From the NCBI RefSeq assembly GCF_057098645.1, contig NZ_CM169472.1: 64,000 nt of DNA. One strand, written 5' to 3'. The first letter of the stretch is position 1. Each line of letters opens with the position of its first letter. A program made the position numbers. This document shows, in pieces, positions 42,789 to 48,700 of this stretch.

Positions 42789-45700
42789 CGAAATTAGTTG
42801 CCGATCATTTAATCGCGGCAAACCTGGCAGGGCATGATTCACATGGTATTGGCATGATCCCAAGCTATGTGCGTTCCTGGAGTCAGGGGCATCTGCAAAT
42901 TAACCATCATGCCAAAATCGTTAAAGAGGCGGGGGCGGCAGTCACGCTCGATGGCGATCGCGCATTCGGTCAGGTCGCGGCACACGAAGCGATGGCGCTA
43001 GGGATTGAGAAAGCGCATCAGCACGGTATTGCCGCCGTGGCGCTACATAACTCGCATCATATCGGCCGTATCGGTTACTGGGCAGAACAGTGCGCAGCGG
43101 CGGGGTTTGTCTCTATCCACTTTGTTAGCGTGGTCGGTATTCCAATGGTCGCGCCGTTCCACGGTCGCGACAGCCGCTTTGGCACCAATCCGTTCTGCGT
43201 GGTTTTCCCACGTAAAGATGATTTTCCGCTGTTGCTCGATTACGCCACCAGCGCCATTGCATTTGGCAAAACCCGCGTCGCCTGGCATAAAGGCGTCCCC
43301 GTGCCGCCAGGTTGCCTGATTGACGTTAACGGCGTGCCGACGACCAATCCGGCGGTAATGCAGGAGTCGCCGTTGGGGGCGCTGTTGACCTTTGCCGAAC
43401 ATAAAGGCTACGCCCTTGCAGCGATGTGTGAAATTCTTGGCGGGGCGCTTTCTGGCGGTAAAACGACGCATCAGGAAACGTTACAAACCAGTCCCGATGC
43501 CATTCTTAACTGCATGACCACTATCATCATCAACCCGGAACTGTTCGGCGCGCCGGATTGTAGCGCGCAGACCGAAGCCTTTGCCGAGTGGGTGAAAGCC
43601 TCGCCGCATGATGACGATAAGCCGATTTTGCTCCCGGGCGAGTGGGAAGTGAACACGCGTCGCGAACGGCAGGAGCAGGGGATTCCATTGGATGCGGGAA
43701 GCTGGCAGGCCATTTGTGATGCGGCGCGGCAGATTGGTATGCCGGAAGAGACGTTGCAGGCTTTCTGTCAGCAGTTAGCCAGCTAAAAAAAAGCCCGTCC
43801 AGTGGCGGACGGGCAAACAAGGGTAACATAGGATCAATGAGGGTTAGAGCATATGCGTCTGTTGGCAAACAGACAGGGAAATACTTGTGCTGGACGTAGC
43901 GTAAACGCCTGATCCGTCCAACGGTTCGGATTTTGTAGGCCTGATAAGACGCGGTAGCGTCGCATCAGGCATCTGTTGCCGGATGCGGCGTAAACGCCTT
44001 ATCCGTCCTACGAATTACTTATAAATTACCGCAGTACCGCTTAATTTATTGTTGTTGGTGGCGGAAGTGATGCTATATCCACTGGCACCGGCTGCCGCCG
44101 CTTTCTCAGCCAGTTTCGCTTCCAGGGCATCGAGGGTGGATGCGCCATCGGCAGAAACCACGCCGATTTTATTCATGTTCTGTGCCTGGGATGCCGTTAC
44201 CGGTTCCGCGGCAAACACGCCAAATGACAGAGTTGAAAGAGCCATAGCAGCAACAACAGTATTGATAGTTTTCATAATTAATCTCTCGCAGGTGATTTTT
44301 TGTTTAAGTGACGTTGTTTCGTCGATGTGATGAGTATCACGTTTTTTTACGAGAGATAAAATCGAAGAGAATTGACCGCCTTGTTCAAATAAATTGATTG
44401 ATATCTAACATACTGATAAACCATTTATTTGTTGTACTTATGGACTTGTTTTATGCAGCGTGGCAGTCACAGCAGCGTTAAAGGCACGGAATGCCACGCA
44501 AAATACAAATTATACTCGCTATGTATCTCGCCAGTTGTAGTTAACGTAACTGGCTGTCTTTCGAACCTCTGCGATTATATCCTGTATAAGCTTGTTTTTG
44601 TAAATCTTTCTCCTGCTGACAATGAATGCATAAGCGCACGCCAGGAATGGCTTCCCGACGGGCTTGCGGGATGGGGGCACCGCACTCTTCACATTCATAC
44701 AGGCTTTCGCCACGCGGAATTTCACCCCGAGCGCGGGCAATCGCATCTTCAATTGTACTGTTGATCTGTTCGTTGACGGCGTCATCGTTAGCCCAACCGG
44801 ATGCCATATCGTCCTCCCCATATCAATACTTGTACAGTTAAGTGTAGCTAATATAGGGACGAACTCGGGCAGTTCAAGCATCAGATCTCCGACCATTCCC
44901 GCAGCAGATTATGATAAAGATTAAGCAGCGACAGGATCTCTTCACTTTCGCCGTAGCGGCTTTTCAGCGACTGAATATTGTTGTCCAGTTCAAACAGCAT
45001 GGCGCGCTTTTTATCATCACGGATCATCGACTGGATCCACATAAATGATGCCACTCGTACGCCGCGGGTTACGGGTGTCACGCAATGCAGGCTGCTGGAG
45101 GGATACAACACCAGATCGCCTGCCGGGAGTTTTACCCGATGTTGTCCGAAGGTGTCATTAACGACCAGTTCGCCGCCGTCGTAGCTTTGTGGATCGCTTA
45201 AAAACAGCGTGGCAGAAAGGTCAGTGCGCATCCAGCCGTTTTGTGGATGGCTGCGTACTGCGCCATCCACATGGAAACCATAGGTTTCATTGTTCTGATA
45301 GCGATTAAACAGCGGCTTGGAAAGGGTACGCGGCAAGGCCGCGGCAAAGAACAAAGCATGTTGGTTAACCGCGTTCAGCACCTCATTTTGCAGGGCGGCG
45401 TATAACGTGCTGCGGGTGTCGACCTGTTGATTGTTCTTAACTTGCGCACCTTGTGCGCCAGTGGTGACGCGTCCATCCACCCATTCGGCTTGTTCCAGTT
45501 GTTCGCGAAAACGGGCGACGTCCTGTGGCGATAACACGCCGGGAATGTGGTACATCATACAAGTTCTCCAAAAAGTGGGGCCTGCGCCCCACATCTGAAT
45601 CAGAAATGCATATTGGCTGTGAGCAAGAAGGTTCTTGGCTCGCCCGGGTGATAACGGTAGCCGCTCTTGTTGATTGAGGCGACGTAATCGGTATCAAACA

Positions 45701-48700
45701 GGTTGTAAACGTTTAGCTGGAAGTCGAGATTGCGATTAACCCGATACCCCAGTTTGGCATCGGCGACCCAGTAACCTTCTGTAAACGCTGGCGTTCCCAC
45801 CGCGCCGTCTGAACCTTTATGCATACTGCCGATATAGCGTGCGCCCGCGCCAACAGAGATATCTTCGGTTGCCTGATATTGGCTCCATAAGGTGAAGGCG
45901 TGCTCCGGGGTATACGGCAGCGATGAGGAACCATCCTGGGCAACATCTTTGCCGTTTTTGATGGTTGCTTTTTGCTGGGTATAGCCGCCAATCACCTGCC
46001 ACGCGGGAGTGATATTCCCTGCCACGGATATCTCATAGCCTTCGACGCGTTTCTTACCGTATTGCGAGTAAGTCCCGTCATCATTTTGCTCAACTTCATT
46101 TTCGATATCAGTACGGAACAGCGCGGCGGTGAGCAACAGGCGTTTATCCAGAACCTGCCATTTGGTGCCAATCTCGCTGGTGTTGGCTTTTTGCGGTTTA
46201 AAATCGGTGCGGTTGGCACTGTTACCGCTGCCAGACTGCGCAAGGGCGAAGTTGTTGCCGCCCGGAGGCTGCTGGGAAACGGCATAGTTAATATAGACAT
46301 TGCCGTTTTCCGTCAGGTGATACAGCGCCCCGGCTTTCCAGTTCACCAGATTGCCCGACTTGGCGGTGTCGACGGTGGTGACCGGAGAACCTTTTGCCAC
46401 ACCAGCTGGGCAGGTGATGGCACCGCGTCCGCTGCCGCCGCAGGCGGTGGCACTGTCATATTCAGTATGATAATTATCCAGACGGATCCCGCCGTTCAGC
46501 TCAAAATCACGGGTGATTTGCAGCGTATCGAAGGCGTAAATTGCGAAGGTATCCGTCTGACCATTGGCGTTTGCGCCGTTGCGCGTCAGGCCGCCGGGAT
46601 GAATGCTGCTGTCAGGATGATAAATATTTACCGCAGGTAACGTCACCGGATTAACGCCGTAGTTAGTCTGCGTTTCACGGGTAAATTCCACGCCGGTACT
46701 GACATCATGACCGATAGAACCGGTATAGAACGTCGAGGTCAGGTTGGTCTGGTTGGTGAGAATTTTATTACTCACATCTTTAGTATTCGCCGTGCGTGAC
46801 CAGGTCCAGCTATTCACATCGCTGGTGGGCTGGGTAATATTCGACGCCCCACCCATAATCGCCGTCATCAGGTAATCCTGCTTCACGCGCGACCAACGGG
46901 TAGTGTTGCGAATGGTGGTGTTATCGTTGATGTCGTGCTCAAAACGCATGGTAGCGGTGTCGGTGGTCGAATCGTCGTAATCGGAATCCGTGCCGTAAAA
47001 GTTATGCGTATCAACTTTTCCGGAATGATTCAGGGTCGCCGTACCCGCAGATGGGGCAGAATAGCCCGGCAAACCGATGGTTGGAATGCCGCCGTCTGGC
47101 GTGTTGTGCTGGGTGACATGCAGATAATTAAGATACAAACGATTCGCTGTACCAAGGCCAAAAGCGACAGAAGGGGCGATGCCGTAACGCTCATTTTTGA
47201 CTTTGTCGCGTCCGGCATCGTGCGTTTTTTCGCCCATCACATTCAGGCGCACCGCGGTGGTATCACCAATGACCTGATTGACGTCCAGCGTGCCGCGGCG
47301 GAACCAGGCGCTGCCAATACTGGCGGAGGCGTCAATGCCAGAATCATTGCGCGGCTGCTTGCTGATCATATTGATCGAGCCCGTCGGCGCGCTGCGCCCG
47401 TAGTCGGTGCCGGAAGGCCCTTTAATCACTTCGACCTGCTCAGTATTGAAGGTGTCGCGCGAGACGCTGCCGATATCGCGAATGCCATCAATATAAATAC
47501 TGTTAGAAGTATCAGCACCGCGCATATAAATGGCGTCGCCAGTGGTGGAGTTACCGTTCTCACCAGCAAAAAATGCACCCACGCCGGGGACGTTTTTGAG
47601 CGCGTCGGTAAGGTTGGTTGCGCCCTGATCTTTAATCACTTGTTCAGAAATTACCGTCATCGTGCGGGTAGTATCCGCTACCGGACGTGAGAATTTCGGA
47701 TCGGCAGATTGTTGTGGCGCATAAAGCGAAGGCGTTGATGCTTCGACAACCAGCGTGTCATCCGCGTTAGTTTGCCCTTCGGCGGCGAGTGCCTGAGCCA
47801 CAGGCGTGATGCCAATACAAAGACCGGCAAAGAACGTGAGCGAATGAAATTGTCTGGCAGGGAAATTGCGATTGTTTTCCATTTTGCAGGTGACTTTTTC
47901 TTATATGTTGAAATTTTCACTGCCACGAGAAAGCCTCTCTGCGGATGCGATGCCACTGTTAATCTCGTGCAAGTGATAATAATTTTGATAAGCATTATCA
48001 CTTGGCGCGATTTTCTATCACCCATTGTGCGAAAAAGAAATACATTTATTTACATTGCGTTCATATTTGATGTTTTTTGATTACAAAACAGACGAAAACT
48101 GCATCCAGAGGCGAATGCAGTTACGTTGGTGGGGTTATTTGTAGATGGTTGCAGTACCGAACATCTGGTCATTTCCGCCTGCGGAATTAATGACATAACC
48201 TTTCGCGCCTTGTTCGCGCGCTTTTTCTGCCAGTTTATCCTCCAGATCGCTTAGGTTTGATGCGCCAGTTGCCGAAACGGTACCGGCGGGCCGTAGCTGA
48301 CCGCTGTCCAGGTTACTCATCGGTTGCGCGGCATAAGCCGTGAGAGAGATTCCGCTCAGGACGGTGGCAATCAGTAGCGTGAGGCACTTTTTCATAATGA
48401 CATCCTCATAAATACAACGGGTAGTGCCTGATAAGTGTAGGTCGCCTGCGCGATGAAAATGACGCAAAAAATTGACAGAGATGTGCTTGTTTTTTGAACG
48501 ATATATTTTTACAAAATAAGATAAATCAATGACATGCATAATGCTGATTTTTATGATGAATTGCCATAAACCATAGCCATGTGAAGGTGTTTAGAAATGA
48601 TAAACGCAGCCAGATATTTACCCTGTCGCGTTATGCGGGTATCTTACGCCGCTGCTTAAAGGAGAATGCTATGTCCGCCCAGAAACCGGGGTTGCATCCG

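Follow-up and report, generated by a model that had tools for sequence, protein, structure and literature searches.

The poorly understood DUF1471 proteins are periplasmic, specific to the Enterobacteriaceae and linked to stress, and their fold is RcsF-like (PMC4092069; PMC12096828; bioRxiv 10.1101/2025.02.11.637708). The family, its ten Escherichia coli paralogues and the paralogy of YbiJ and McbA have already been published (PMC4092069; bioRxiv 10.1101/2025.02.11.637708), YbiJ being called a paralog of McbA in the latter work. Expression of mcbA is repressed by McbR (YncC), and its overexpression gives a mucoid (colanic-acid) phenotype, according to Zhang (2008) as cited in PMC4092069 and PMC12096828. 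The genes ybiJ, bhsA and yhcN, and not mcbA, are among the 20 most acid-induced genes in published acid-stress data. Here we describe ybiJ and mcbA in a stretch of 64,000 nucleotides (contig NZ_CM169472.1, RefSeq assembly GCF_057098645.1; hereafter the window), which is E. coli core chromosome, with strains of enterohaemorrhagic E. coli (EHEC) O145:H28 as the nearest. Whichever origin holds, the divergence of the two genes predates the split of the genera that share the locus, and an old local duplication seems to us a somewhat better explanation of the pair than a dispersed origin.

Same-family paralogues lying side by side on the same strand are found elsewhere, namely yjfN-bsmA in E. coli K-12 and yhcN beside a ycfR-like gene in Salmonella (Eletsky et al., PMC4092069), and these other pairs therefore suggest that local duplication may be the way in which the DUF1471 family grows. 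The members of those pairs are directly adjacent, whereas ybiI lies between ybiJ and mcbA, together in E. coli with a 3-kb fiu-ybiX cassette.

The YbiJ and McbA proteins and their gene neighbourhood

The two genes are the following.

ybiJ, 44015..44275, minus strand: 86-aa DUF1471 periplasmic protein (open reading frame, PF07338, NCBIfam and annotation of E. coli O145 RM9872)
mcbA (ybiM), 48135..48395, minus strand: 86-aa DUF1471 periplasmic protein (PF07338, NCBIfam McbA and AlphaFold mature domain)

The original prediction, made from the sequence, had described two 86-aa DUF1471 proteins ending in IYK on either side of a Fur-regulated ybiI-ybiX-fiu block, and the open reading frames (ORFs) at 44015-44275 and 48135-48395, with their PF07338 and NCBIfam matches, bear this out; the mcbA ORF, 134 aa long as listed, is reduced to 86 aa by the annotated start. 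The two proteins align end to end without a gap with 40 of 86 residues identical (47%; BLASTP E 1e-22). Both lie well beyond the gathering cutoff of 27 bits of PF07338 (YdgH_BhsA-like; 64.8 bits for YbiJ, 69.8 for McbA), and each matches its own NCBIfam model, YbiJ the equivalog NF007611 with 173.1 bits and McbA NF040473 with 174.5 bits (cutoff 110). The gene at the mcbA position in E. cloacae scores 107.4 bits on NF040473, slightly below the cutoff of 110. No further DUF1471 locus was found in the 64-kb window by a permissive tblastn with the ten E. coli K-12 paralogues, which puts the pair far above chance.

Passing both the family and the subfamily models, and composed of a signal peptide and one domain of about 60 residues, YbiJ and McbA do not differ from the DUF1471 family (YhcN/BhsA/McbA) and are the E. 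coli reference members of their subfamilies. They share with it the predicted DUF1471 fold and the conserved C-terminus G-T-A-x-I/L-Y-K (GTAVIYK in YbiJ, GTATIYK in McbA); because BhsA (VIYK), YhcN (ELYK), RclB (VLYK) and YdgH (DLYK) end alike, an ending of this type, common in the family, is a family hallmark and not specific to the pair. The N-termini, MKTINTVVAAMALSTLSFGVFA/AEP and MKKCLTLLIATVLSGISLTAYA/AQP, with a basic residue, a hydrophobic core and an AxA-type site, are putative Sec signal peptides. Both window proteins have BhsA (YcfR/ComC) and YhcN as their nearest paralogues (35-47% identity), and the four make up one subgroup, although the loci of BhsA and YhcN are unlinked and have separate regulators (comR next to bhsA), and BhsA, with 85 aa, aligns with one gap.

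In the AlphaFold model of McbA, residues 36-85 are predicted with a local distance difference test score (pLDDT) of 88-92 and in the order strand-helix-strand-strand. The top Foldseek matches of the model are 2JNA, 4EVU, 2MA8, 2M2J and RcsF 2Y1B, with SrfN, YdgH and YahO as solved members of the DUF1471 family, and the PDB holds no structure for YbiJ or McbA themselves. The match to RcsF 2Y1B has a Foldseek probability of 1.00, a template modelling (TM) score of 0.53 and an identity of 11%. RcsF, an outer-membrane lipoprotein and stress sensor, has a similar small alpha+beta fold, whereas YbiJ and McbA lack both a lipobox and an N-terminal linker, and their mature domains, being free of cysteines, can form no disulfides. 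RcsF binds outer-membrane proteins (OMPs) and is resembled by the solved DUF1471 domains (PMC4092069; PMC12096828); OMP binding by YbiJ and McbA in the manner of RcsF is, by this analogy, hypothetical. A profile search for the family recovered only 420 members among 1.84 billion cluster representatives, and the named homologues are nearly all from Enterobacteriaceae, the sole exception being a metagenome-assembled genome labelled 'Proteobacteria bacterium'.

The 4.9-kb region that holds ybiJ and mcbA is 99.7% identical to that of E. coli O145 RM9872, and at least 80% of it is present in 5416 of 5426 complete E. coli genomes; the REP element downstream of ybiJ (see below) accounts for the median of 11 matching places per genome obtained with the 4.9-kb query. 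The ybhL-ybhM region, which the original prediction had mentioned as a second example of adjacent paralogues, is 100% identical in RM9872 and is present to the same extent in 5375 of the 5426, so that both regions are, as had been claimed, conserved core DNA within E. coli. The YbiJ sequence recurs unchanged (100% identity) in E. albertii and in a species-representative genome of E. coli, and that of McbA (100%) in another Escherichia genome. A variant of YbiJ from E. coli (P0121, 114 aa) carries an in-frame internal tandem duplication of 28 residues, ASTLDALEAKLAEKAAAAGASGYSITS being repeated.

Between ybiJ and mcbA lie three genes, all on the minus strand.

ybiI, 44541..44807, minus strand: DksA/TraR-type C4 zinc-finger protein (PF01258)
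ybiX, 44881..45558, minus strand: PKHD-type 2-oxoglutarate-Fe(II) hydroxylase (PF13640 and PF18331, PKHD_C; annotation)
fiu, 45600..47882, minus strand: catecholate siderophore TonB-dependent receptor (Plug and TonB_dep_Rec_b-barrel domains; annotation)

The position of ybiJ and mcbA on either side of this block is confirmed by the ORFs and by the RefSeq annotation of RM9872, in which the gene order is hcxB, ybiE, ybiJ, ybiI, ybiX, fiu, mcbA, rlmF, ybiO. A scan with McbA, limited to one genome per species, yielded 26 loci, onto which eight window proteins were mapped. The order ybiO, rlmF, mcbA, fiu, ybiX, ybiI, ybiJ, (hcxB) is found at 17 of the 26, in Escherichia, Citrobacter, Silvania and Leclercia. 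Six lack fiu and ybiX (E. albertii, C. werkmanii, C. youngae, two C. amalonaticus and Enterobacter sp. RIT418); mcbA, ybiI and ybiJ then span about 1.2 kb, with mcbA and ybiJ about 700 bp apart. One Citrobacter locus has kept a fragment of ybiX and has no fiu. In E. albertii, what appears to be a short remnant of the 3' end of ybiX is left (by eye, about 14 of 20 bases agree), so that its fiu-ybiX-less state is probably a deletion.

Beyond these loci, a start from YbiJ homologues showed rlmF-ybiI-ybiJ with neither mcbA nor fiu-ybiX in Salmonella; an McbA-like gene together with ybiI and ybiJ, again spanning about 1.2 kb and lacking fiu-ybiX, in E. cloacae; and fiu-ybiX-ybiI-ybiJ in Klebsiella michiganensis, where a flavin reductase gene takes the place of mcbA. 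All four combinations of mcbA and fiu-ybiX therefore exist (both in E. coli, mcbA only in E. albertii and Enterobacter, fiu-ybiX only in Klebsiella, neither in Salmonella). The constant core is ybiI-ybiJ, around which mcbA and fiu-ybiX vary independently; ybiI and ybiJ are adjacent in every ybiJ locus examined, including those of Salmonella and Klebsiella. Among more divergent relatives, a 56% identical McbA-like gene adjoins fiu and a 62% identical YbiJ-like gene adjoins ybiX-ybiI. The context of P0360, a deep McbA-like representative, is unrelated, with a pqq operon nearby; two more, P0342 and P0408, come from contigs of 1-2.4 kb.

The two proteins have evolved at different rates. Identity to the E. 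coli protein is 100% for YbiJ versus 87% for McbA in E. albertii, 80-86 versus 67-78% in Citrobacter and 76-77 versus 63-66% in Leclercia. YbiJ is the slowly evolving, widely retained copy, and McbA, missing from Salmonella and Klebsiella, is dispensable-looking and evolves about twice as fast.

Origin of the pair and meaning of the bracketing

In every genus with mcbA, the two genes share strand and locus, and they are near-adjacent where the cassette is missing. A neighbour-joining (NJ) tree of 87 full-length sequences (300 bootstraps) recovered a YbiJ clade (59% bootstrap) and an McbA clade (69%) and placed them as sisters with nothing between. In a four-cluster test (1000 bootstraps), based like the tree on about 63 informative residues, the grouping (YbiJ,McbA) was obtained in 45-60% of the replicates versus 36-46% for (McbA,BhsA).

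The account that we prefer, with moderate confidence in it as a whole, is that an old near-tandem duplication at an rlmF-ybiI-ybiJ locus would have given rise to ybiJ and mcbA before the split of Escherichia, Citrobacter, Enterobacter, Leclercia and Silvania. Protein identity between the copies has since fallen to 47% and DNA identity to 51%; each has its own transcription signals, and they would have subfunctionalised so as to respond to different inputs, mcbA through repression by McbR and ybiJ through acid induction together with bhsA and yhcN. Each is a putatively Sec-exported domain of about 63 residues, with the predicted beta-alpha-beta-beta fold also seen in RcsF. The fiu-ybiX cassette is a separate unit, kept or deleted independently, so that the bracketing is inherited gene order and not a functional module. 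The data show the homology, the fold, the gene order, the independent presence and absence and the difference in rate, from which the local origin of mcbA and the subfunctionalisation are inferred. Likewise, ybhL and ybhM would be a conserved parent beside a fast-diverging old tandem copy.

A number of results weigh against this account. Similarity between the two genes is confined to the coding sequences, as an alignment including 200-bp flanks showed none outside them, and a permissive tblastn with YbiI and all the paralogues found no second ybiI remnant and no extra DUF1471 fragment in the window; this latter search thus gives no sign of a larger duplication unit, and a recent segmental duplication is contradicted by the unrelated flanks together with the 51% nucleotide identity of the coding sequences and their longest identical run of 9 nt. 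The pairwise protein identities are indistinguishable (46.5% for YbiJ-McbA, 46.5% for YbiJ-BhsA and 43% for McbA-BhsA), and the McbA-BhsA bit score of 68.2 is at least on a par with those of McbA-YbiJ (53-70). On the NCBIfam BhsA model YbiJ and McbA score 116 and 101.5 bits, compared with 80.6 and 74.3 bits on each other's model. The node joining the two clades as sisters has a bootstrap of only 4%, and when only the E. coli BhsA and YhcN are used in the four-cluster test, (McbA,BhsA) is obtained in 59-70% of the replicates. Finally, the regulation of the two genes is not fully separate: ybiJ and ybiM are both strongly induced on radish sprouts in strain EDL933 (published data set), so that some input is shared.

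Much of this is what would be expected if mcbA were a dispersed bhsA-like copy, placed beside rlmF by a transposition-like duplication or by transfer within the Enterobacteriaceae, with its proximity to ybiJ coincidental. This is the less likely origin in our view, though a serious competitor: BhsA gives McbA its top bit score among the E. coli paralogues, the BhsA model fits McbA better than the YbiJ model does, (McbA,BhsA) appears in 36-70% of the four-cluster replicates depending on the outgroup set, YcfR/BhsA is the nearest Salmonella protein to YbiM (47%; Eletsky et al., PMC4092069), and mcbA is more patchily distributed than ybiJ. Yet the BhsA model may be broader or nearer to the ancestral sequence, the best NJ tree has the McbA and YbiJ clades as sisters, the gapless alignment over 86 aa is not matched by BhsA, which needs one gap, the KLAEKA motif is exact in the pair, and orientation and locus are constant in all genera with mcbA, including the 56% identical relative. 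The YbiJ/McbA/BhsA trichotomy stays undivided in the trees because about 63 informative residues are too few. The local duplication claimed by the original prediction is thus plausible and favoured by position (strand, order and the spacing of about 700 bp), while the event is old and sequence alone, which does not single out YbiJ, cannot tell ybiJ from a bhsA-like source of mcbA.

As to the bracketing, McbA and/or YbiJ, being RcsF-like, could bind or monitor the Fiu beta-barrel, in which case the arrangement would have been selected as a functional unit. The resemblance of the McbA model and of the solved DUF1471 domains to RcsF, an OMP-binding sensor (PMC4092069; PMC12096828), speaks for it, as do the mcbA-fiu adjacency kept in four genera and the fact that in E. 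coli K-12 mcbR adjoins pqqU, another TonB-dependent receptor gene (L006:30262-33065), just as mcbA adjoins fiu, a parallel that is probably a coincidence. However, E. albertii, several Citrobacter and Enterobacter have mcbA but not fiu, Klebsiella has fiu but not mcbA, and Salmonella has ybiJ with neither of them; mcbA has its own terminator and fiu its own predicted Fur promoter; and the Fur-1 iModulon, in which fiu, a member of the core Fur regulon, is listed with ybiX and ybiI, includes neither ybiJ nor mcbA (PMC10164565). We regard a functional unit as very improbable. Even less credence can be given to the view that the flanking paralogues act as direct repeats for the recombinational loss or gain of the intervening block. 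Their common orientation and the variable presence of fiu-ybiX would fit, but 51% DNA identity with a longest identical run of 9 nt does not, the deletions take fiu-ybiX only and leave ybiI and both DUF1471 genes intact, and the endpoint in E. albertii is apparently inside ybiX; this reading is effectively refuted. Because mcbA and fiu-ybiX are gained and lost independently and neither DUF1471 gene is in the Fur-1 iModulon, the bracketing of the Fur-regulated block holds as a position and not as a meaning, and there is no sign of mobility, of a recent event or of functional coupling to fiu.

Beyond tidy annotation the significance of the pair is small. What is added here is that the neighbourhood is kept across several genera and that the fiu-ybiX cassette is an independently lost unit. 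Since the two genes differ in rate and, as reported in the literature, in their regulators, redundancy of ybiJ and mcbA should not be assumed in knock-out studies. The least ordinary observations made in the window are the extreme divergence of ybhM between genera and a private deletion in the fiu leader, both described below.

Transcription signals and the fiu leader

The following signals were noted along the locus.

48095..48120, minus strand: intrinsic terminator hairpin of mcbA, CTGCAT-N10-ATGCAG followed by TTTT (read from the sequence)
47975..48021, minus strand: promoter-like site of fiu, GTGATA-16-GATAAT, overlapping the Fur-box-like AT-rich repeat GATAATGCTTATCAAAATTATTATC (promoter scan and sequence)
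45575..45592, minus strand: GC-rich hairpin with a T-run in the 41-bp fiu-ybiX spacer, terminator- or attenuator-like (terminator scan)
44850..44877, minus strand: promoter-like site upstream of ybiI, TTGAAC-16-TATATT (promoter scan)
43938..44008, minus strand: repetitive extragenic palindromic (REP) element or bacterial interspersed mosaic element (BIME), immediately 3' of ybiJ (Rfam naRNA4, RF02564, 78.4 bits)
43793..43814, minus strand: strong hairpin followed by T8, likely terminator between the convergent hcxB and ybiJ (terminator scan)

With separate terminators and promoters along the locus, ybiJ and mcbA look like separate transcription units. The terminator hairpin is kept directly 3' of mcbA in Escherichia, Citrobacter and Enterobacter loci, and the promoter-like sequence of ybiI is kept in taxa without fiu-ybiX. 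The promoter and Fur-box-like region of fiu is invariant in seven Escherichia sequences. No site within three mismatches of the strict 19-mer Fur consensus was found anywhere in the window, and the one Fur-box-like sequence seen, that upstream of fiu, can be recognised only by its hexamer repeats; neither the published iModulon nor the sequence points to a Fur control common to the DUF1471 genes and the block that they flank. The hairpin in the fiu-ybiX spacer is a possible attenuator inside a Fur-regulated operon.

A second REP element lies at 43856-43919 and is overlapped by the 19-codon ybiE ORF (about 43853-43912, plus strand, mapped from the O145 annotation). The Rfam scan linked no small RNA to ybiJ or mcbA, its only match there being the REP-derived naRNA4 downstream of ybiJ. 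The small RNA BhsB of E. coli K-12 is annotated over the 3' end and terminator of bhsA (L002:19304-19403).

One of the three differences from E. coli O145 RM9872 in the 4.9 kb is a 12-bp deletion (GCACTATCACGA on the gene strand) at 47963/47964 in the 5' leader of fiu, some 80 nt before the ATG, between CACGAG direct repeats and just downstream of the Fur box. Of 5,426 complete E. coli genomes searched, 5,421 matched an 80-nt junction query, and the deletion is present in none of these and in none of six other aligned Escherichia sequences. It could be a private regulatory mutation of a siderophore and antibiotic receptor gene, or an assembly error.

The ybhL/ybhM pair and other features of the window

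The second pair consists of two multi-pass membrane proteins of about 235 aa.

ybhL, 22829..23533, plus strand: conserved Bax1-I/YccA-family inner-membrane protein (PF01027, 211.1 bits; cutoff 34.1)
ybhM, 23738..24451, plus strand: divergent Bax1-I paralogue beside ybhL (PF01027, 71.9 bits; cutoff 34.1)

Both match PF01027 of the Bax inhibitor-1/YccA family, as expected of the adjacent paralogues that had been announced. Pairwise alignment, the check proposed for both pairs, is significant here as it is for YbiJ and McbA, with 26% identity over 151 aa (E 1e-12). Within the family YbhM is highly divergent, with 72 bits and no likeness to YccA, and has no NCBIfam model match. Among the three E. 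coli Bax1-I members compared (YbhL, YbhM and YccA), YbhM resembles YbhL (E 1e-12) and has no detectable similarity to YccA (E 0.4), as would be expected if it derived from YbhL and not from another member. When 5.8 billion proteins were searched, the only YbhM homologues came from Escherichia and Shigella, and many were truncated; a look-up of the 90% cluster of YbhL returned members only from E. coli and Shigella.

The GC content of ybhM is 0.42, versus 0.49-0.52 for its neighbours. In Salmonella, a second Bax1-I gene, also of low GC, lies between ybhL and ybhN (L038:19719-20426), and its product is 32% identical to YbhM (E 3e-21) and 29% to YbhL (E 2e-16), compared with 95.7% identity between E. 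coli and Salmonella for YbhL (141 alignable aa) and 90% for YbhN. A horizontal acquisition of ybhM, suggested by its low GC and its Escherichia-only matches, was set aside in view of this low-GC, diverged counterpart at the same site. Within E. coli, the ratio of nonsynonymous to synonymous substitution rates (dN/dS) of ybhM is 0.12-0.20 in five of six comparisons and 0.73 in the sixth, a pair with low dS, while that of ybhL is 0.03-0.04; the ybhL-ybhM region is just 90-95% identical in 503 E. coli genomes. On the simplest reading, ybhM would be an old tandem duplicate of ybhL, still functional and evolving very fast. Because YbhM resembles YbhL and not YccA and has a same-site counterpart in Salmonella, a tandem origin is better supported for this pair than for ybiJ and mcbA, and the local duplication proposed for ybhL and ybhM is reasonably supported.

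It is conceivable, though improbable, that both pairs follow one pattern, a conserved envelope protein beside an unusually fast old copy, with the fast copy under lineage-specific envelope selection and not merely relaxed. If so, the selection might come from the entry of phage, colicin or contact-dependent toxin or, in the case of McbA, from an interaction, like that of RcsF, with barrels of the outer membrane such as its neighbour Fiu.

Salmonella also has, between ybhN and its ybhM-like gene (L038:18520-19695), three minus-strand ORFs of 80, 56 and 202 aa that have a low GC (0.41-0.47) and no E. coli counterpart; none had a Pfam match, the 202-aa ORF by direct scan and those of 80 and 56 aa in precomputed annotation.

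Elsewhere in the window, just upstream of dinG, an IS3-family transposase ORF with rve domains (36483-37388, minus strand) is adjoined by an ORF of 489 aa that contains a SopA-like HECT-type catalytic domain (37668-39137, plus strand); together (36483-39137) they resemble an EHEC effector islet that has inserted into the core. Upstream of the moa operon there is a molybdenum cofactor riboswitch at 19858-20002, plus strand (RF01055, 103 bits), and 61062-61104 matches the small RNA ES036/CssrF (RF02751).

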